IMG/VR virus record: IMGVR_UViG_3300028805_000041
Coordinates: 147,224-211,223 of that record
Strand: one strand, 5' to 3'
Source: a virus
Lineage: Duplodnaviria > Caudoviricetes
DNA length: 64,000 nucleotides
Shown: positions 34,566 to 44,002 of the stretch, piece by piece
Numbering within the stretch: the first letter of the stretch is position 1
How the letters are laid out: the number at the start of each line of letters is the position of its first letter
The notes under the pieces: model-generated
Database searches by the model: none
The model's input: only the letters and a program-made list of their open reading frames with translations
Told to the model about the DNA's origin: nothing
Translations under genes and position numbers: made by a program

Positions 34566-35563
34566 TAAAAAACTAATTCGTATTCTTTAAATTGTAATTT
34601 ATTTTTAATGGTGTTTATGACACCTTTTTTCCCTTCGTTCTCATAAACCTCTCCGATATCCTTGTATTTTTCCATTCTGACATACCATATCTTATTCTTC
34701 AATCTCCCGAAATTCAAAAGACCGTATATTCTCTTAGTCTCTGTTATATCCGTATCGGAATCCAATACGATTATTATGTTTCCATTTGCCCTCTTGGTCA
34801 GACTCCCAAACAATGCAGTGTCCTTAGTCAGTTTCTTTCCTAACATCGATATGGCATTCACAGGATAAAGACAGTCAATTGCCCCTTCGCACAATATGAT
34901 GTCAAAATCCCAATTTATATGCGATTCCTGAAAGATTATCTTCTTTTTATCTGAATCGCAGTTCTTGTATTTTATTTTCTGCGTACCTGTGAAATCTCTC
35001 CCAACCCAATAGTTCAAATCACCATATTCATCATACGATGGTATTATAATACGGTTTCTCATCATCCTCTCATATTCGTTCCAAGATGTGTAACCGATGT
35101 TGAATTTGTCAATTATGTTCTGATCAATTTTTCTCTTTTCAAGATATTTCCTTAAAGTGTCAGGACAATTTGAAAGGTCTATTTTTGAAAATGTTCTCGG
35201 TAATGTTATGAATGTTTCATTCTCCTCTTCCTTTTTGGCGGAAAAAAGATTGATGTCATACATCTTGCTCTTAATAAGAAATGTTATTTCATCCTTATAT
35301 CTCTTATATAAGAGCGGGGTACCGTATTTCTTTACAAGATATCTTATGTTTCCCTTTGTTCCGTCAGTATCGCCGCATTTCCAACAATTGTACTTTCCAA
35401 GTTTTAAATTAACCTCCAAATTATATTTGTTATCGGGTTTTCCACCATTTTCCTCAGCACAACACGGACAATTGAATTGATATTGATCAGTGTCCTTATT
35501 GTAATCACCCTGCCTGCTTGCGCCCAATATTTCCTCTAAAATCCGATAAATTTTCTCAAACAT
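34565..35563 (-). CDS. DNA primase
   Basis: Zinc finger CPCC...CWKC, RIIIP, GRDF, KYKN, TOPRIM EGAID and LDSD; ATG 35563 preferred. Confidence 0.88.
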   Translation of the reverse strand: MFEKIYRILEEILGASRQGDYNKDTDQYQFNCPCCAEENGGKPDNKYNLEVNLKLGKYNCWKCGDTDGTKGNIRYLVKKYGTPLLYKRYKDEITFLIKSKMYDINLFSAKKEEENETFITLPRTFSKIDLSNCPDTLRKYLEKRKIDQNIIDKFNIGYTSWNEYERMMRNRIIIPSYDEYGDLNYWVGRDFTGTQKIKYKNCDSDKKKIIFQESHINWDFDIILCEGAIDCLYPVNAISMLGKKLTKDTALFGSLTKRANGNIIIVLDSDTDITETKRIYGLLNFGRLKNKIWYVRMEKYKDIGEVYENEGKKGVINTIKNKLQFKEYELVF

Positions 35564-35647: not shown

Positions 35648-37330
35648 CTATTCAACATCATCGCCACCGTAGTAGAGCATACCGTAGAGAGCGCCACTTT
35701 CATTCTTTGCAATCTCAATGTGACCTGCATCAACAGTTGAAGCGGTACCCGTTTCGAGGTTAACCTCAACATTGTTGCCTGTAGCACCTGTGGTTACAGT
35801 GATTGTCTGACCGGTTGACTCAATCTTAGAAGCGTTGCTTGCAGCATCAATCTTCTGATAAACATCATCGAATGATTGAGTGATTGAACTTGTTGCGGGA
35901 AGAATTGTGGTAGCACCACTTGTTACAGCCTGACCAAGTTGGATTTCAGTTGCATCGATGGTTATTGCGGTACCTGTATTGTTGTTGACACTCTGTACAG
36001 CAGTACCGGCAGCGGTAACGGCATCAGTAAGAGCCTGAGTAGCAGAAACGGTTACGGCGTGGTCTGTTGCGCTTGCACTAACCAATGTATCACCTGTAGC
36101 AGTTACGTCAGGATATGAACCGTAAGTAACACTTATCTTACCATCGGTTTCGGTAACATCGGCAACAAATGAGTTTTCTGTTGGCTTTGTGTTTGTGGTG
36201 CTTCCATCCAAGCCTGCAATTGCTGTAGCAATCTTATTGTCAACAGAACCTGCGGTTGTGCTATCAGCCTTCAAGGTGTTGACATCACTTTCAATGGCCT
36301 GAGTTGTTGCACTAAGTTGACTGACGCCAGTGTTAACACCTTCAATTGCGGCAGCAATCTTTTGGTCAACAGAACCCGTAGTAGCACTGTTAGCATTCAG
36401 AGTTGTGATAGCCTGTGTGTTGGCACTTGTAAGACCACTGAGAGCCACAATGTCTTGAGAAACACCACTTGTGATTGCTGTGGCAGCAAAACCTTCAGTC
36501 GTCAAACCGGAGGCATCCTTAAGAACAACGTTACCGTTGTCGAGCATTACATCTACAATGTCAGTACGCATTAATGTTTCAATGTCGTCCGCATTTGCTT
36601 TGCTCTTGTCATAGAGGTCTTGAAGAGCGGCCTGTACTTTAGTTGTTGCAGCAACTTCGGTATCACCTGTGATGGCTGTGCCAATCTCGATGTCATTTGC
36701 ATCAATGGTAACTGTATTACCGGTTTCACCATTTACGCTCTGAACGGCGCTGTTAGCATTTGCGACAGCAGAAGTAAGGTCCTGAGTAGCAGAAACAGTT
36801 ACGCTGTGTCCTGTTGCAGTTGCACTAACCAATGTATCACCTGTAGCGGTTACTTGAGACTCAGTTGGGAGAGTACCATAAGTTACGGTTACGATACCAT
36901 CGGTTTCGGTTACGTCAGCAACGTATGCATTTTCTGCTGGCTTTGTGCCTTCGACAGCACCATCCAAACCTGCAATTGCTGTAGCAATCTTTTGGTCAAC
37001 AGAACCTGAAACACCACTGTTAGCATTCAGGGTTTCAACATCAACTGCAATACCTGAAGTAGTTGCGCTGAGAGTGGCAAGGTCTTGAGTGATAGCGGTA
37101 GTAGCACCTGAGATAGAGTCAACGAATGCTCTCCAAGTAGCAAAACCTTCAGGAAGACTTCCAAGAAGAGTCTTTATCTCTTCGGCTGTACCGTACTTCT
37201 TACCGTTAAGTTGGAGATAACCATCAGTCTTACCTGTGTTAGTTCTCACGAAATAGAGCACATCACTGTCAAATGTACCAGTGGTGGCGCTTGTTAAAAT
37301 AATACCTTTTAAAAGATGTTTGTTTTCCAT
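35648..37330 (-). CDS. Fibre/adhesin-like protein, Thr/Ala-rich, internally duplicated
   Basis: GSVDQKIATAI repeats, VQSVNG; C-terminal GDDVE. Confidence 0.65.
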   Translation of the reverse strand: MENKHLLKGIILTSATTGTFDSDVLYFVRTNTGKTDGYLQLNGKKYGTAEEIKTLLGSLPEGFATWRAFVDSISGATTAITQDLATLSATTSGIAVDVETLNANSGVSGSVDQKIATAIAGLDGAVEGTKPAENAYVADVTETDGIVTVTYGTLPTESQVTATGDTLVSATATGHSVTVSATQDLTSAVANANSAVQSVNGETGNTVTIDANDIEIGTAITGDTEVAATTKVQAALQDLYDKSKANADDIETLMRTDIVDVMLDNGNVVLKDASGLTTEGFAATAITSGVSQDIVALSGLTSANTQAITTLNANSATTGSVDQKIAAAIEGVNTGVSQLSATTQAIESDVNTLKADSTTAGSVDNKIATAIAGLDGSTTNTKPTENSFVADVTETDGKISVTYGSYPDVTATGDTLVSASATDHAVTVSATQALTDAVTAAGTAVQSVNNNTGTAITIDATEIQLGQAVTSGATTILPATSSITQSFDDVYQKIDAASNASKIESTGQTITVTTGATGNNVEVNLETGTASTVDAGHIEIAKNESGALYGMLYYGGDDVE

Positions 37331-37357
37331 TCTGTTATAATTAATTAATTATCTTTA

Positions 37358-37957
37358 TTATGCGTTTGTTTCGAAATCATCTCCTGCGAGAGATATTGCG
37401 GTCTCGGTTGAGGAGACGCGGACATCCAATGCCGCCACGTCGCTCTCAATGTCGCCAGAGGCCGACGATTGTGCGATTTTTTGTAGTGAGTTGCCTGTAA
37501 CAACGTATAATCCCGGATCGTATGTCGTATAGTCTTCGCCTTCGGGTTCTGTTGTTGTGTAAATTGTTTCACCGCTTTCTTCATATGAATATGTTCTTGT
37601 TTTCACATACACCATGCGTCCTGCGTTTTCAGGTGAAGCATATTCAAGGGCGTCGGAGTAGTCGTTTACCACCACAGTAGAGAGTGGCGAACCGACCTCC
37701 TTAAGACCCTTAACTCCATCTTCACCCTCAGTGATGACGTACACAGTAACATTACCGTTTTCGTATACGGTAAGAACCTGTCCGACGAATGACGTACCGC
37801 CCAAACCCCTACTATCGCTACCATCACCTTTGGCGTAGGCAGTTGCATCAGCCAATGAACTGAACAAGTCTGTTCTGTCCAAAGGTACTGGTGCCGTTCT
37901 TTGGAGAACGTTTGCCCAGTTCAATTTACTTTTAAAAATTTCAATATAACTTGCCAT
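37358..37957 (-). CDS. Fibre adaptor-like protein (199 aa)
   Basis: N-terminal PLDR...FVGQVLTV domain; C-terminal SASGDI coiled coil and GDDFE. Confidence 0.6.
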   Translation of the reverse strand: MASYIEIFKSKLNWANVLQRTAPVPLDRTDLFSSLADATAYAKGDGSDSRGLGGTSFVGQVLTVYENGNVTVYVITEGEDGVKGLKEVGSPLSTVVVNDYSDALEYASPENAGRMVYVKTRTYSYEESGETIYTTTEPEGEDYTTYDPGLYVVTGNSLQKIAQSSASGDIESDVAALDVRVSSTETAISLAGDDFETNA

Positions 37958-37969
37958 TTATTCTTTTAT

Positions 37970-39439
37970 TTATGATAACGTTATTGTGTAGGTGTTAGCG
38001 TCAAGGTCAGTGGATGGTGTCCAAGACCAAACGTCATACGCTACTGAATCATAGTCGTTGGCCGAAAATACATTTACACTACCCTGTTTCTCGAAGTTAC
38101 CCGTTATAGCGGCCTCAGATGCATTCCTGTCCGTAACCTTGACCAATGTCTTGTTTGCAGATGATGGGAAAGCAAATAGGACTTGTTTCGTACCGTTTGC
38201 GGTTACGAGCGAGAGTGAATTGGAACTTGTCCATCCACTGTACTGTAAACCTCTTACTGTTGAACTTGTTATTTGGGCAACAGGAGAAGAGAGATAGCCG
38301 TAGAAGTATTTTCTTGCACCTGTTATTGTTTTTGATGCACTGTTTGTAGCGACAAGTGTCTTTCCGTTTGTCCAATCAGACGGTGTCGTGATTGTGAGCA
38401 CATTATCCGTTTCCTTATCGTTCTGATAATAGTTGCCTAAGTTTGTGGCAATGTAGATATTGTCGTTAGACACAGTGTTGCTTGCAGTGTAAGTTTTACC
38501 TGATTGCGATACTGTCACCTTATTAGTGCCCTGCGTTACCGTCAATGCTTCACCATTGAGGTTTTCATTTGTTACCGTGCGTCCTGTTGCGCCGTTGAAA
38601 CCTGTGTATGCAACGGTAAGTGAAACGTCCTCATTGCTGACAGTTGGTGTCAATGTTTGAGTATATTTTGTGTTTGAGTATTTGGTTTCGCCTATCTTGT
38701 AGCCGTAATCAAACGTTGATGCTGAAATATACTGAGATGCAGATGATGTCTTCGGTGAAACACTGCTCAAGGTAACAGTTGAACCGACCTCTTGTGTGGC
38801 TGCTGTGTTTGAAAGGGTGATTGTAGGTGCAGCAACAGACACACCGAAGTGATTGTACTGTTGTACACTTGCTGCCCATTTCTCGACACAGAGCATACTT
38901 ACGAGGAAATCCTGAATGGATGTTCCTGAAGGAATCTTACCATTCGAATATGCCTCCATTGCAAGGTCAGCCAAAGGTCCACCTGCGATTGTTATATCCG
39001 ATGATGTGACAGTTGCGTCAGTATCAACTCCGTTAACTTCCAACTCATTGTTTGAATTGAGTTTCAGGAAGTTTTTGTTTGTGTCCACATCATCAACCGC
39101 ATTTTCAGTTTCATCAGCAACGTTAACCGAAATGGCACCGTCATAAATGGTAATTGCAGAACCCTCTACAAGTTGTGCATCGGCAATCATTGATGCGATA
39201 TCCACAGTATTACCTGTTTCGTCAATAATACCGGCGTCTGACAAAATCTGATAGATGTCATTAACAGACTCCATTGATTCGTCATATACACCATAGCATC
39301 TATTACCGAAATAGATTTTACCATAGGTATCTTGTGCATTCTCACGAACTAACCACAAAAATGCTTTTCTATCCTCAACAGAAGCGCTGTCATACGTAGA
39401 TTGGTATGCTTGCTTTATACCTTTGAAGATTATTTCCAT
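37970..39439 (-). CDS. Fibre protein (489 aa)
   Basis: N-terminal KGIKQ...IYFGNR domain; S/T-rich beta region; C-terminal YFYG...AFP domain. Confidence 0.6.
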   Translation of the reverse strand: MEIIFKGIKQAYQSTYDSASVEDRKAFLWLVRENAQDTYGKIYFGNRCYGVYDESMESVNDIYQILSDAGIIDETGNTVDIASMIADAQLVEGSAITIYDGAISVNVADETENAVDDVDTNKNFLKLNSNNELEVNGVDTDATVTSSDITIAGGPLADLAMEAYSNGKIPSGTSIQDFLVSMLCVEKWAASVQQYNHFGVSVAAPTITLSNTAATQEVGSTVTLSSVSPKTSSASQYISASTFDYGYKIGETKYSNTKYTQTLTPTVSNEDVSLTVAYTGFNGATGRTVTNENLNGEALTVTQGTNKVTVSQSGKTYTASNTVSNDNIYIATNLGNYYQNDKETDNVLTITTPSDWTNGKTLVATNSASKTITGARKYFYGYLSSPVAQITSSTVRGLQYSGWTSSNSLSLVTANGTKQVLFAFPSSANKTLVKVTDRNASEAAITGNFEKQGSVNVFSANDYDSVAYDVWSWTPSTDLDANTYTITLS

Positions 39440-39523
39440 TTATATTGTGTTTGTTTCTTTTTTTGTTAGCTTATTTAGTTGGGGTAGGAATGTTCCCACC
39501 CCAACATGTGTGTTTGTGTTAAA

Positions 39524-40678
39524 TTACACCTCAACGTCGTCGCCTGTAATGGTGCTGTGCTTGTCAGCCTCCAAAACAGTAACTCTCTGTTCGAGGTTAG
39601 CAACGGCTTGATCGATGTCGCCGCTTGCGGAAGTTGTACCAAGTTTTTGGACTGTGCCTTCACCTGTTACAACATATGCACCCTCCGTATAACCTGTGTC
39701 ACCATATTGGTTGGTGATATAGATTATCTGACCAAGATTGTCCTCTGAAGCGAGTTCCTCTGCTTCTGAGAGAGTTGCTGCGGTTGTTGTTGCCTTTTCT
39801 TCCAAGTCATTAACTGCACTGCTGATTTCGTTAATGTCTGAAGAAATGCCTGAAAGAGCCTCATTTACGTTTTCAACTACTTCGTCAATGGCGTCTTCAA
39901 CGTCTTGCTTTGTAGCATAGTTTGAGAGGTCAAGATTGAAACCGAGTTCAACCCATTCTGTTCCATTCCAAGCATATTCCTTTTCTCCAACCTGATAAAC
40001 GTCACCATTTTCTGCGTCGTTTGGAAGTTCTTCAATTGATTCAACTTCACCCTTGAAGTGCCATACACCCGCAATCTTACCATCAATTTCGTCCTTTGTG
40101 TAGACATTTTCGAGGTCGGCTGTAAGTCCTGAAATTACTTCGTTGATATCAGCAACATCAGACTTCAGGTCAGCAACTTCGTCTTGGAGGTTTGAAACAT
40201 CACCTTGAAGGTCAATGACGTCTTCCTTGATGTCAGCAACATCACCCTGTACTGCTTCAATGTCAGCAACAGCGGCTTGGAAATCAGCAACGTCCACCGT
40301 CTCAGTGAGAGCGGACTGTGCTTCTACGATTGCGCTTTCGAGGTTCTTGAGAATGTCGAGAACATCATCGGCGTTTTGAGAGAGAATTGGATGGTCTGCT
40401 GCGGTGTCTTCTCCGCCAAATGGGAAACCGACGAATTCGCCGTTTTCGTCTAAAAGACCACCAAATGCGGTTTTAAGGTTGTCAGCAAGAGTTGCAGCAG
40501 AACCGTCGTTTGTCTCAGCATAGAGACGATTACCAAAGTAAATCTTTGAACTTACAACGTCGCTACCGTCTAAATCTCTAACAACCCACAAATAGCCTTT
40601 CTTTTCTTCGGCTGTGTAGTCATTCAGATAACTGTTAAGAGTCACCTGTTTAATACCTAAAAATTTAGCATCTGCCAT
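39524..40678 (-). CDS. Coiled-coil fibre protein (384 aa)
   Basis: Heptads DVADIKEDVIDLQGDVSNLQ; VYTKDEID...WHFKG...GDVYQV...WNGTEWVELG motif; C-terminal GDDVEV. Confidence 0.7.
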   Translation of the reverse strand: MADAKFLGIKQVTLNSYLNDYTAEEKKGYLWVVRDLDGSDVVSSKIYFGNRLYAETNDGSAATLADNLKTAFGGLLDENGEFVGFPFGGEDTAADHPILSQNADDVLDILKNLESAIVEAQSALTETVDVADFQAAVADIEAVQGDVADIKEDVIDLQGDVSNLQDEVADLKSDVADINEVISGLTADLENVYTKDEIDGKIAGVWHFKGEVESIEELPNDAENGDVYQVGEKEYAWNGTEWVELGFNLDLSNYATKQDVEDAIDEVVENVNEALSGISSDINEISSAVNDLEEKATTTAATLSEAEELASEDNLGQIIYITNQYGDTGYTEGAYVVTGEGTVQKLGTTSASGDIDQAVANLEQRVTVLEADKHSTITGDDVEV

Positions 40679-40721
40679 AGTTTTTATAAACGTTTATATT
40701 TTAATTATTTATTATTATTTG

Positions 40722-41018
40722 TTAAATACCACTTGTTTCGACATCATTACCTGAAACAACGTCAAGGTTGGCTCTACAGCCTTTTTTCTCCCATGATGTG
40801 TTTGACACACCACTCTTAAGCCAATATTCGGTTGGCTCTCCGTTTTCTCCGTTTAATACGGTTACTGTAAGACCAATAAAACGTTGTGCTCTCGGAATGT
40901 CGTTAAGGTCAGCGAATTCAGGTACGGGCTGCATCTTTGCATCGAGATAGCCCTTTCCGCTCCATCTTCTTTGTTCATCCAGTTCTACTGAATCTGTATA
41001 AGAAATTGTTCTTGCCAT
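40722..41018 (-). CDS. Small fibre adaptor-like protein (98 aa)
   Basis: YLDAK...RFIGLTVTV...EYWL domain; C-terminal GNDVE. Confidence 0.6.
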   Translation of the reverse strand: MARTISYTDSVELDEQRRWSGKGYLDAKMQPVPEFADLNDIPRAQRFIGLTVTVLNGENGEPTEYWLKSGVSNTSWEKKGCRANLDVVSGNDVETSGI

Positions 41019-41020
41019 AT

Positions 41021-43978
41021 TTATAAAACTAATTTTTTACTCTTATCTGTTATTCCGACACTTGCAACACTCATCTTGTTCTTAATTACGAAACATTCTG
41101 TTCCGTCAATCATGACACCGGTCTCTGCAACAACATATTTTCTTGGGTTGGTGTTGTTTGATACCTCAGCACCGTCCTCTAAGATAGAATAGGTTGTAAT
41201 GACCGAAGGAATTGCAATGACATAACCGTAATAATTATCAACTTCCCATTGTTCCCATTCTTCATCCGGAGCATCATCAGCAGGCTCAGGAGTTGGTTCA
41301 GGTGAGAACATTGTCAGGTCATACGTATTGCCTGTTTCAACTTCAATACTATTCAATGTTGAATAATCAGTCAAATTGTCAATATCCGTATTCATAAGAC
41401 AAGCATAGTATACCTTGTTTTTAATCTCTGTATATGTACCACTAATTGTCAGGTCCTGTGCCGGCATTGTTGTCGGTTCACTGTCCCAACTGAATACATA
41501 TCCTTCACGTTCTGCCACTGTTGGGTAGACGATTGTTGAACCGTACTCAACACTTCCACTTGATACGAAATTACCATCAACAATAAATGTCAGGATAAAT
41601 GACTGAACCGCGTATTCACCATTTATGGTAACATCGTGCGCGGGCATATTTGTTATATTGCTGTCCCAAGCAAAATCATACCCTTCACGTTCTGTGTGCG
41701 ACGGATAAGTGATTACCGAGTTGTAATCCACACTTCCGCTTGATACGAAATTACCTTCGATTGTAAATGTCAGAACGTATTGGTTAATCGTGAACGTACC
41801 GTTGACCGTCATATCTTGTGCGGGCATTGTTTCCGGTAGTTCCTCATCCCAAGCGAAACTATAACCTTCCTTAGTCGGGTCACTTATTACAATCTCAGTT
41901 CCATAGTCTTGAGTAATGCTCGAATAAGGTTCATTGTCAATAGTGAGTGTCAGTGTGTATTGGTTAACTGTGAATACACCATTGATTGTCTGGTCATATG
42001 CGGGCATTGTAGCGGGAATTGGTTTCTCCCAAGCGAAACTATAGCCTTCTCTTGTCGGTTCGTCTACAATAATCTCTGTACCATAATTCAATGTGAGGCT
42101 CGTATAAACAGTACCATCTATTGAAAGATACAATGTGTACTGATTGATTGTAAATTCACCATTGATTGTCAAGTCTTGTGCGGGCATTGTTTCTGGCAGT
42201 TCCTCGTCCCAAGCAAAACTGTAGCCTTCCTTAGTTGGTTCCGCAACTGATATCACACTTCCATAATCCTGAGTGATGCTTGAATATGCTTCACCACCAA
42301 CTGTCAGTGTCAGTGTGTATTGGTTAACTGTGAATACACCATTGATTGTAGTGTCGCTACTTGGCATAGTTGCGGGAATTGGAGTACTCCAAGCGAAACT
42401 GTAGCCCTCTTTAGTGGGATCAGTTACAGAGATTGCCGTTCCGAAGTCCTGTGTGAAACTTGTATAAGGTTCACCATCGACTGTAAGTGTCAGTGTGTAC
42501 TGATTGATGGTGAATGCACCATCGATAGTCACGTCGCTACTTGGCATTGTGGTCGGTAATGGAGAATCCCAAGCGAAACTGTACCCTTCACGGGTTGGTG
42601 TTTCAACTGAAATTACGGTTCCAAAGTCCTGAGTGATGCTTGTGTAAGGTTCACCTTCTACCGTCAATGTCAGTGTGTATTGGTTAACCGTGAATATGCC
42701 ATTGATCGTGATGTCGCTACTTGGCATAGTTGCGGGAATTGGAGTACTCCAAGCGAAACTGTAGCCCTCCTTAGTCGGGTCAGTTACAGATATTGCAGTG
42801 CCAAAGTCCTGAGTGAAACTTGTATAAGGTTTCCCATCAACTGTAAGTGTCAGTGTATACTGATTAATGACGTGATCTACTGTTATTGTAATAACGTCAA
42901 CGTCCGGAACAGTTGTTGGGTGCTCACCCCATACGATACGATAGCCTTCTTGTTCGTCGATTGTCGGGAGGACTATTGTATCTCCGTATGAATATGTTTG
43001 TGTCAAGTCATCTCTTTCGATGCCGTCCACAACATATTTAACTGTATATACTTTCGCGGTTGTTGTGCCTTGTATTTCTACATCATTATATGGCATAGTT
43101 TGTGGCACTTCGGTACTCCAACCATTGAATATATAACCCGTTGCGGGTGTATATGTGTATTCAGTTACGGTGGATTTGTATGCAAAACTGTCCGTATGTA
43201 CAAGATTACCATCTACATAGTATTTGATATGATATGTATTTGGTGTTGTACGTCCATTGATTGTGATGTCCTCTGCTGGCATTGTGGAAGGTACGTTTTC
43301 CCAACCGTTGAATGTATAGCCCGTTTCGGGTGTCACATCAGGAGCAACTATCGTTTCACCGAACGCATAGTTTTTCTTAGTATATTCAACGCAGTCAAGG
43401 ATGAATGTTATTACAAATCCATCCGCAACAATCTTTGTTGAATAATCGTACTTCTTGTCATCATACTTCAGAGTTGGGTCGATTGAACTCTCCTTAGAAA
43501 TAAGGATATCTCCGGCAGAGTAATCACTTTCTTTGGGAGTAGCATAAATACCAACGTTGTATTTGCCCTTTGTCTTTGAAGGGACAGTGACCTTATAGGT
43601 TCCGCCACCTTCACTGACAACACCGCTTGATGGGTCTATATCAACAACGAACTTATCCTCGTTAAGGATAATTGTCATTTCGACACTTGATTCCGTCTGA
43701 TATTCAGGAGAAATGTTCATTTGATATCTTCCTGAAGTCTCAGTAAACGAGATATACAGTGTATTAGCCGTTGTTTCTGTGTCGCCGCTTGTGTCACCGC
43801 TCGTATCTCCGCTTGGCACGACAGGAACTCTGTTTTGCCAGTTCATTGCGTCCTCTGCGGACATTCCACACAGATCGATATATGAGCCAAACGTATAGTA
43901 TTTATCTTCGGTCAAGCAGTTGTCAAATGCATTATCCCACTCATAACCGTATAAAAAACTCGGTATTAATTTGCTCAT
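41021..43978 (-). CDS. InlB B-repeat (Listeria-Bacteroides repeat/Flg_new) array protein
   Basis: Roughly 10-11 repeats of about 60 aa: YTLTLTVDG...PTKEGYSFAW...TMP..D.TING.F. Confidence 0.8.
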   Translation of the reverse strand: MSKLIPSFLYGYEWDNAFDNCLTEDKYYTFGSYIDLCGMSAEDAMNWQNRVPVVPSGDTSGDTSGDTETTANTLYISFTETSGRYQMNISPEYQTESSVEMTIILNEDKFVVDIDPSSGVVSEGGGTYKVTVPSKTKGKYNVGIYATPKESDYSAGDILISKESSIDPTLKYDDKKYDYSTKIVADGFVITFILDCVEYTKKNYAFGETIVAPDVTPETGYTFNGWENVPSTMPAEDITINGRTTPNTYHIKYYVDGNLVHTDSFAYKSTVTEYTYTPATGYIFNGWSTEVPQTMPYNDVEIQGTTTAKVYTVKYVVDGIERDDLTQTYSYGDTIVLPTIDEQEGYRIVWGEHPTTVPDVDVITITVDHVINQYTLTLTVDGKPYTSFTQDFGTAISVTDPTKEGYSFAWSTPIPATMPSSDITINGIFTVNQYTLTLTVEGEPYTSITQDFGTVISVETPTREGYSFAWDSPLPTTMPSSDVTIDGAFTINQYTLTLTVDGEPYTSFTQDFGTAISVTDPTKEGYSFAWSTPIPATMPSSDTTINGVFTVNQYTLTLTVGGEAYSSITQDYGSVISVAEPTKEGYSFAWDEELPETMPAQDLTINGEFTINQYTLYLSIDGTVYTSLTLNYGTEIIVDEPTREGYSFAWEKPIPATMPAYDQTINGVFTVNQYTLTLTIDNEPYSSITQDYGTEIVISDPTKEGYSFAWDEELPETMPAQDMTVNGTFTINQYVLTFTIEGNFVSSGSVDYNSVITYPSHTEREGYDFAWDSNITNMPAHDVTINGEYAVQSFILTFIVDGNFVSSGSVEYGSTIVYPTVAEREGYVFSWDSEPTTMPAQDLTISGTYTEIKNKVYYACLMNTDIDNLTDYSTLNSIEVETGNTYDLTMFSPEPTPEPADDAPDEEWEQWEVDNYYGYVIAIPSVITTYSILEDGAEVSNNTNPRKYVVAETGVMIDGTECFVIKNKMSVASVGITDKSKKLVL
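41460..42865 (-). repeat. About 180-nt tandem coding repeats
   Basis: Recurring ccaagcgaaactgtagcc and gtcagtgtgtattggttaac at 180-nt spacing. Confidence 0.85.
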
Positions 43979-44002
43979 AATTATTTATGGTTTTACTATA
44001 AT

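Follow-up and report, generated by a model that had tools for sequence, protein, structure and literature searches.

Conserved order of terminal modules in a putative fibre gene block of an uncultivated jumbo phage suggests fibres built from docked proteins

The stretch studied here, hereafter the window, is the final 64 kb (64,000 nucleotides) of one 211,223-bp virus contig, IMG/VR record IMGVR_UViG_3300028805_000041 (genome label G000), and the subject is a block of six open reading frames (ORFs), g1 to g6, at window positions 35,648 to 43,978. The encoded proteins carry a small set of recurrent end modules, whose order along the genes is conserved in related operons. On balance, we consider it probable that they constitute a modular multi-protein fibre system, whose parts would be joined by conserved docking modules at their termini. 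The finding is real and the grammar of the modules is conserved, but the surprise is limited, because lock-and-key ends on consecutive fibre genes are already known in principle from the T4 long tail fibre, the gp37/gp38 pair and the docking peptides of Klebsiella phages.

All six ORFs of a preliminary description of the block were found on the minus strand, with the lengths (985, 98, 384, 489, 199 and 560 amino acids (aa), from g1 to g6) and the end motifs that it had given. They are all co-oriented and separated by gaps of 2, 43, 84, 12 and 27 nt, from g1-g2 to g5-g6. Three N-terminal modules are distinguished: A0 on g1, the PLD-type L domain on g2 and g5, and the G domain, FKGIKQ..YLWLVR..IYFGxRxY, on g3, g4 and g6; G' is the g6 subtype of G, and g5/L2 a subtype of L. 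Two C-terminal modules occur: T, which modelling shows as a beta-rich domain and which belongs to g4 and probably to g1, and E, the short acidic tail of g2, g3, g5 and g6. W stands for a small W-type end protein. Architectures are written as N-module.C-module, for example G.E, G.T or L.E, and the window then reads A0.T > L.E > G.E > G.T > L.E > G'.E. The order rule is that E is followed by G, G' or W, and T by L. Given the element assignments, all five junctions of the window follow this plug-and-socket rule, as had been claimed, and 12 of 720 gene orders satisfy all five.

The modules are specific to these genes. Of the 927 genome ORFs of at least 50 aa, only four have the motif G[DN]D[VFIL]E among their last 15 residues, namely g2, g3, g5 and g6, and the acidic tail is absent from every baseplate ORF of the genome. 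The tails announced for these four proteins are thus present, but they are not always terminal, as 4, 1, 3 and 0 residues respectively trail the motif. Their consensus is phi-x-phi-x-G-D-D-V-E, and the pentapeptide occurs in three contexts: a coiled coil with a conserved His 4 residues upstream, an aromatic LYxxMYY strand, and a short beta segment. When the 1316 ORFs of the genome were searched with profile hidden Markov models (HMMs) derived from the window and from related loci, matches to the G domain were confined to g3, g4, g6 and a 66-aa ORF outside the block, and matches to the L domain to g2, g5 and a 187-aa ORF, likewise outside the block. In profile comparisons, G matches the G' subtype with a probability of 97.8%, and the g2-type L matches the g5-type L with a probability of 94.2%.

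Well beyond this genome, a profile search of 1.84 billion proteins placed 266 representative clusters in the G family at E<=0.001. Of 160 hits, 158 have the domain at the extreme N-terminus, beginning in the first 15 residues, and in the remaining two a Met lies inside the protein where the start would be expected. The strict acidic tail ends 43 of the 150 G-family clusters listed, and many more end in variants of it. The g2-type adaptors have 107 relatives of 81-281 aa, among which 53 carry the strict acidic motif and 82 a looser GxDx[ED]-like end. Some proteins consist of a G domain and a tail only (66-79 aa) or of an L domain and a tail only (87-98 aa) and, being composed of little beyond an N-module and a tail, they make most sense as adaptors. 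Rosetta-stone fusions of tail and G domain inside one ORF were absent among the proteins collected. As judged by these profiles, the G and L families are widespread, and they lack Pfam/PHROGs annotation. Alignment shows conserved D, D and E residues in the tail and conserved K, R and R residues in the G domain; these charges appear complementary, which we count in favour of docking. The genome holds 4 acidic tails and 4 G-type domains, and the genome labelled G001 holds 2 tails and 2 partners.

Related operons were collected by scans with G-domain and g2-type adaptor alignments, which gave one IMG/VR contig, ten metagenome contigs and one contig of a rumen metagenome-assembled genome (MAG). 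After removal of the near-duplicates L005, L008 and L010, ten operons remained, the window included. The same primase, SbcD, RuvC and SbcC genes flank all ten, which are therefore relatives. The preliminary description had proposed that the adjacency rule be tried with HMMs on related phages; it is obeyed at all 43 junctions of the ten operons (16 T>L, 21 E>G and 6 E>W).

What is informative is that the order rule survives every gain, loss or fusion of modules. Each operon has 0, 1 or 2 G.E modules, and a [T + L2] unit is present in some and absent from others. L002 has the architecture of the window plus a small W-type end protein, and L006 and L025 read A0.T > L.E > G.E > G.E > G'.E. L007 reads A0.T (251 aa) > L.E (90 aa) > G.T (672 aa) > L.E (482 aa) > W, and L009 and L011 are like it. 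L004, which is inverted relative to its flanks, reads G.E (198 aa) > G.T > L.E > G'.E > W. The clearest comparison is that of L001 with its close relative L007, as a single G.E gene of 433 aa (L001:9995-11296) replaces the G.T gene of 672 aa and the L.E gene of 482 aa (L007:9995-13492). Because the N- and C-ends are the same, this difference is a natural deletion, insertion or fusion of a whole [T + L] unit, and the variant keeps the order rule.

T and the L domain that follows it have moreover been transferred together. Similarity matrices of T and following L were compared across seven operons. Between L009 and L011, the G domain (0.61) and the C-end of L.E (0.38) are similar, whereas T (0.07) and the following L (0.10) are unrelated; L009 is, on the other hand, similar to L002/L003 in both T (0.59-0.70) and L (0.59-0.67). 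As L009 and L011 share the ends but differ in T and the following L, the swapped block spans the gene boundary from mid-gene to mid-gene, and the subtypes of T and following L appear to be swapped jointly, as one cassette. Assigning g4/g5 and L011 to one cassette type was also considered and was rejected, the similarities being only 0.10 and 0.17.

A T-then-L pair that is not linked to the block occurs in the same genome, at genome positions 100774-104360 on the plus strand (L026:4775-8361). A 981-aa fibre-like protein with a different N-type has a T end (E 1.6e-7), and 77 nt after its gene lies that of the 187-aa protein with an L domain (E 4e-12). With this third case, 3/3 L-domain genes of the genome follow 3/3 T-type ends. 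The 981-aa protein has a weak tail-fibre PHROG match, and the 187-aa protein has a Cys/Gly-rich stretch and no acidic tail. An M23 peptidase-LysM protein is encoded downstream of the pair and a Fib_succ_major-domain protein upstream.

In the mechanism that we propose, the E tail of one protein, probably trimeric, would dock onto the N-terminal G domain of the next-encoded protein, and the downstream L domain would bind the upstream T domain, like the gp38 N-terminal domain on the gp37 tip in T-even phages. The g2 protein would be a pure adaptor, which turns a T end into an E plug. The product would be composite fibres, assembled following gene order and anchored via the conserved N-domain of g1, a domain common to the first gene of 6 related operons. 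The gp25-like and gp6-like wedge genes and the giant ORFs just upstream are counted in favour of a role in the virion. The physical contacts, the oligomeric state and the choice between a chain, a branched assembly and two to three fibres are what we infer from the modules and their order. The preliminary description is supported insofar as its order rule holds in the relatives; the single extensible fibre that it proposed is only one of several parses, and a branched assembly or two to three fibres (g1; g2-g3-g4; g5-g6) fit the data equally well. A complex prediction of three copies of g3 residues 296-384 with three copies of g4 residues 1-95 gave 0.71, 0.00 and 0.00 in its runs, no controls being folded, and weighs neither way.

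A wider generalisation can be put forward only tentatively. The end modules may be two orthogonal and reusable codes (acidic tail > G; T > L), by which fibres of open-ended length or branching would be built in a large clade of uncultivated gut and rumen phages, with link proteins of 66-98 aa that would only convert or lengthen a joint, end-caps and possibly self-chaining of proteins bearing both plug and socket; we find this possible, but doubtful.

Several observations weigh against docked fibre parts. Because the operons are syntenic relatives, the 43 junctions cannot be counted as independent events. The likeness of the g1 and g4-type C-domains, on which the first junction depends, is the weakest link: the homology is only moderate (hhalign probability 69%, E 4.5e-5, over 53 columns), and the T HMM does not match g1 directly. 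L004 and L005 open with a G-domain protein, with no tail-bearing gene upstream within the locus, and at the other end the g6 tail has no partner gene downstream, nor has the tail encoded by the final L006 gene. W homologues are absent from this genome (best HMM match 12.3 bits). As W is not detectably homologous to G, one tail would need to serve two N-terminal folds; W as a divergent G domain was tried and rejected (hhalign probability 0.8%). An L-like module recurs inside g3 and g5, so that L is not purely a terminal socket. Listeria-Bacteroides repeats, which g1 carries, are typical of monomeric, bead-like surface proteins and, on this general background, fit a trimeric fibre poorly. Finally, neither profile searches of PDB, nor Foldseek, nor VIA-align found for G or L a structural relative with a known docking role.

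Some of these points agree with several independent fibres, in which A0, L and G would each anchor directly to a baseplate socket, the tails would have another role and the gene order would be synteny from a shared ancestor, unrelated to any contact between neighbouring products. The common flanking primase, SbcD, RuvC and SbcC genes of all ten operons, the G protein that opens L004/L005 with no upstream tail and the unpaired tails of g6 and of the last L006 protein all speak for it. So do proteins in which L, G or another N-type is fused directly to a g4-like body with a T end (P0009, P0015, P0019 and P0012), as their existence makes single-chain fibres viable. Independent fibres nevertheless leave the small L-plus-tail and G-plus-tail proteins (87-98 and 66-79 aa) unexplained, and they fit neither the lack of an acidic tail on any baseplate ORF, nor the order rule being kept through every gain or loss of modules between operons, nor the joint swapping of T and following-L subtypes. 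We regard them as unlikely.

It is also unlikely, in our view, that the L proteins after T are tip factors of the gp38/Tfa type, acting as assembly chaperone or terminal adhesin and not as shaft, with only the tail-G pairs being joints. The spacing from T to L genes is short (-1 to 10 nt following g1-type genes and 12-42 nt following G.T genes), and the position of tail fibre assembly genes is similar. The L protein of 187 aa encoded behind the 981-aa fibre lacks an acidic tail, and gp37/gp38 provides a precedent (PMC3157838). Against this, the L proteins of the operons all carry an acidic tail, with a G/G' or W gene next in order, and the 482-561-aa L.E proteins of L007, L009 and L011 look like long shafts. 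Tip factors would differ from docked fibre parts only in events distal to T.

A third explanation, improbable to us, is that the acidic tail and the G domain are generic end-caps that make no mutual contact, the former a C-terminal registry or metal-binding cap and the latter an N-terminal trimerisation nucleus. The pentapeptide does follow three different structural contexts, and the strand-turn-strand YLWLVR..IYFG of the G domain presumably recalls the fibritin foldon hairpin. The modules are, however, distributed independently (G.T without a tail, L.E without G), yet across the 43 rule-abiding junctions a tail is always followed by G, G' or W, and mini-proteins with only a tail and a G domain would be purposeless. 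Lastly, conserved gene ends serving as DNA-level recombination linkers for cassette exchange, with protein conservation as a by-product, are very improbable and were dropped: although the fibre genes are mosaic and cassettes are clearly exchanged, the junctions lack DNA identity of the needed kind (the three G-coding starts of the window are only 49-54% identical, and two junctions share exact words of at most 8-11 nt), and conservation lies at the protein level, among operons of 33-52% identity.

The YY-GDDxE tail class precedes a W gene in 6 of the 9 other operons (not in L003, L006 and L025). GDDVE/GDDAE tails come before the W N-termini WRGKRSTY/WRGSRESY, and TSDPE/TTDPE tails before WIGSLESY; this charge co-variation is suggestive only, since it comes from a single lineage. 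W proteins carry an LPxxLxxGDRYLVG motif, similar to the g3 motif GVWHFKGEVESIEELPNDAENGDVYQVGEKEYAWNGTEWVELG described below. Their CG[TE][YF] end is borne in this genome only by the 66-aa ORF, at genome positions 34720-34920 on the plus strand (L027:721-921), which ends in ..INCGEY and has a G'-type domain (G HMM E 2.8e-9). It is the sole G-type domain outside the operon, making the fourth in the genome, and is a candidate cap for the unpaired g6 tail. The end [DN]CG[TE][YF] is found both on W proteins and on the mini-proteins P0141, P0041 and P0111. As it also ends two large fibre-like proteins of G001 with other N-types (C1 26277-28250, plus strand, 657 aa, ..DCGEY; 116689-119862, minus strand, 1057 aa, ..DCGTY), it looks like a third recurrent fibre end motif.

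The individual proteins, all encoded on the minus strand, can be described as follows. The base fibre protein A0, g1 (41021-43978), consists of the conserved N-domain, Listeria-Bacteroides repeats and the T-like C-domain, KVYYA...AIP (aa 844-972, 41063-41449, from the A0C HMM alignment). It alone among the six matches a curated family above its cut-off, namely Pfam Flg_new PF09479, the family of Listeria-Bacteroides repeats (93.1 bits against a cut-off of 27, E 1.1e-26, 3 stretches). Its 60-aa repeats are encoded by a tandem array at 41762-42867, resolved by Tandem Repeats Finder as 6.1 copies of a 180-nt unit or 2.9 copies of a 360-nt unit. The adaptor g2 (40722-41018) comprises an L domain (L HMM E 4.9e-25) and the acidic tail GNDVE (aa 90-94, 40737-40751). 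In its AF2 model the core, residues 30-80, reaches pLDDT 83-87, and the N-terminal 25 residues and the tail are of low confidence. For the L domain of this model, the best Foldseek E was 1.4 and the best VIA-align Z 4.6, too weak for naming a fold; many of the weak VIA-align rows (Z 2.2-4.6) are phage tailspike or fibre N-terminal or linker domains.

In g3 (39524-40678; G HMM E 5.3e-23), the G domain, FLGIKQ..YLWVVR..IYFGNRLY, is delimited by two alignments and the HMM search (aa 1-55, 40514-40678) and is followed by a coiled coil, the internal L-like module and the acidic tail. All coiled-coil-type Pfam matches of g3 are below their cut-offs. Its residues 282-383 resemble residues 75-196 of g5 (E 3e-11), and its tail GDDVE (aa 379-383, 39530-39544) lies in the context H-x-I-x-GDDVE, which is kept in a 27-row alignment. 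A central motif of g3, GVWHFKGEVESIEELPNDAENGDVYQVGEKEYAWNGTEWVELG (39930-40080, aa ~200-250), is the only part of the operon that matches GenBank phages, at 28-41% identity: crAss-like cr10_1 and cr109_1, Enterocloster phages and two unclassified records. The same region also matches phrog_13666. The 10 GenBank phage records returned by tblastn of g3 all cover only this central 16-30%, and megablast of the operon against GenBank phages gave no match.

The 489-aa g4 (37970-39439) has a G domain (aa 1-55, 39275-39439; G HMM E 5.2e-24), a shaft, a beta-rich body and the T domain KYFYG...AFP (aa 365-489, 37973-38347; T HMM E 4.6e-36, alignment of 17 T domains), and it carries no acidic tail. Its homologues found number 26. 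The AF2 model of g4 has a mean pLDDT of 83.1, with residues 190-489 mostly >90, and its G domain is modelled as a small alpha/beta unit with a strand at 7-12, helices at 13-18 and 21-26, and strands at 27-32, 39-44 and 47-53. Foldseek searches with the g4 and g2 models returned no solved structure at E<=0.001, and in a PDB sequence search the profiles of G and L matched no entry below E 0.09. In g5 (37358-37957), an L domain of the g5/L2 subtype (L HMM E 2.3e-14) is followed by an L-like module, a short coiled coil and the acidic tail GDDFE (aa 192-196, 37370-37384). It matches phrog_33094, of unknown function, at E 2.5e-5, and an ESM Atlas look-up gave weak leads at best (Phage_fiber_rpt and Phage_tail_C, scores 0.88-0.92). 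The last protein, g6 (35648-37330; G HMM E 2e-12), has a G' domain, a long repetitive shaft and an end module ..GALYGMLYYGGDDVE, with the acidic tail GDDVE of the YY-GDDxE class (aa 556-560, 35651-35665). In Pfam and PHROGs, g2 and g4 are without any match, g6 has sub-threshold Pfam families only, and g3 and g5 have weak or unnamed families.

Both ends of the block are marked by terminator-like hairpins on the minus strand, one 5' of g1 after the RuvC-like gene (44078-44046, a 13-pair stem and a T run) and one 3' of g6 (35625-35595, a 14-pair stem and a T run). The direct flanks are primase, SbcD, RuvC-like, methyltransferase and SbcC genes. Upstream on the plus strand lie the gp25-like and gp6-like baseplate wedge genes, followed by giant ORFs of 2614, 1329, 760, 931, 309 and 1083 aa (12484-33730), which are without PHROG family at E<=1e-5; the 1083-aa protein adjoins the fibre block also in L001, L004 and L007. 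Judged by its content and neighbours, the block is the side- or tail-fibre gene set of an uncultivated, contractile-tailed jumbo phage (myophage) of about 211 kb. A G+C-rich inverted repeat with 8-bp arms and no T run lies within the 84-nt g3-g4 spacer (39478-39505, minus strand), and it may be an internal attenuator or RNA-processing site dividing the operon into g1-g3 and g4-g6. The G+C content of positions 36000-44000 is 0.41-0.45, against 0.32-0.38 around, which probably reflects the Thr/Ser/Ala/Gly/Asp-rich composition of the proteins and does not speak for a foreign origin.

Single-protein IMG/VR scans with g4, g3 and P0026 returned no relatives, nor did an IMG/VR scan with the g2-type alignment or a first scan of genome contigs. 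The source labels of the relatives that were found by other scans include a yak-rumen Paludibacteraceae MAG, a Bacteroidales MAG and a Lachnospiraceae MAG (L025; proteins P0177 and P0222). They hint at anaerobic hosts of the gut or rumen, although phage contigs are binned unreliably. Within the G'-type start of a 99-aa ORF, the L003 contig (5574-9011) passes into genes of bacterial appearance encoded on the opposite strand (radical-SAM HemN-like, sigma factor and SLH-like); this is probably an assembly chimera or a decayed prophage end.

Which hosts a tailed phage can infect depends on its fibres, and fibre engineering is limited by knowledge of the points at which the proteins join. Should tail/G and T/L prove to be real joints, they would be short, portable junction modules shared by hundreds of protein clusters without Pfam/PHROGs annotation. 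They would then explain how large phages build and reshuffle complex fibre sets, provide rules by which many virion genes of gut metagenomes now labelled 'hypothetical' could be annotated, and supply testable junctions at which receptor-binding parts could be exchanged. Were their portability as great as the mosaicism of the genes suggests, the joints would amount to a natural plug-and-play standard for fibre engineering.

No description of these fibre joints or modules was found in the literature searched, which did not cover outside papers and supplements, and a literature search for GDDVE found no phage paper among the matches listed. In polyketide synthases, to which the preliminary description likened the block, docking domains at the C- and N-termini of successive gene products also match each other in the order of the genes; they belong to an unrelated system and fold, in an enzyme assembly line and not a virion fibre, and the likeness is one of analogy only. 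Jumbo and large myophages of the phiKp24, RaK2 and CBA120 type have multi-fibre networks, which use T4 gp10-like or other N-terminal adaptor domains. No T4 gp10-like or similar N-terminal adaptor domain was found among g1-g6 in Pfam and PHROGs. The resemblance is that of a large myophage with many fibre genes beside a complex baseplate (10.1101/2022.03.15.484430, PMC10253068, PMC11721090).

The Klebsiella podophages KP32 and K11 have an RBP2 docking peptide and an RBP1 branching domain, a pair validated experimentally (PMC13352976; see also PMC6872550). The resemblance is that of a short conserved peptide and a globular domain forming an exchangeable pair, here proposed from sequence; Pfam and PHROGs showed no homology of the present modules to the Klebsiella proteins. 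The polarity differs, as here the peptide would be C-terminal on the proximal protein and the domain at the extreme N-terminus of the distal one (158/160 hits). In KP32-type systems, the peptide is N-terminal on the distal protein and the docking domain is internal to the proximal protein.

In the T4 long tail fibre, the different polypeptides gp34-gp35-gp36-gp37 are joined end to end with the N-terminus proximal, and their genes lie in fibre order (PMC3004832 and PMC5537660). The genes g1-g6 are clustered and co-oriented between terminators, and their proximal-to-distal order would be that of the genes. Pfam and PHROGs revealed no homology of g1-g6 to the gp34, gp35, gp36 or gp37 families. 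Unlike the present operons, T4 does not have one short motif repeated at its joints, whereas the tail/G pair is reused up to three times per operon and across hundreds of protein clusters.

The other T-even precedent is that of the gp37 C-terminus and the gp38 N-terminal domain, whose subtypes are invariably associated and were read as lock-and-key (PMC3157838). As in that account, the upstream T subtype is matched here to the following L subtype, across seven operons. There is, on the other hand, no sequence similarity to gp38 adhesins or Tfa chaperones, since neither g2 nor g5 has a match to them in Pfam or PHROGs, g2 being without family and g5 matching only phrog_33094. Unlike gp38, the L proteins here usually carry an acidic-tail plug and are followed by more fibre genes, and the operons have, in tail > G, a second pair of the peptide type.

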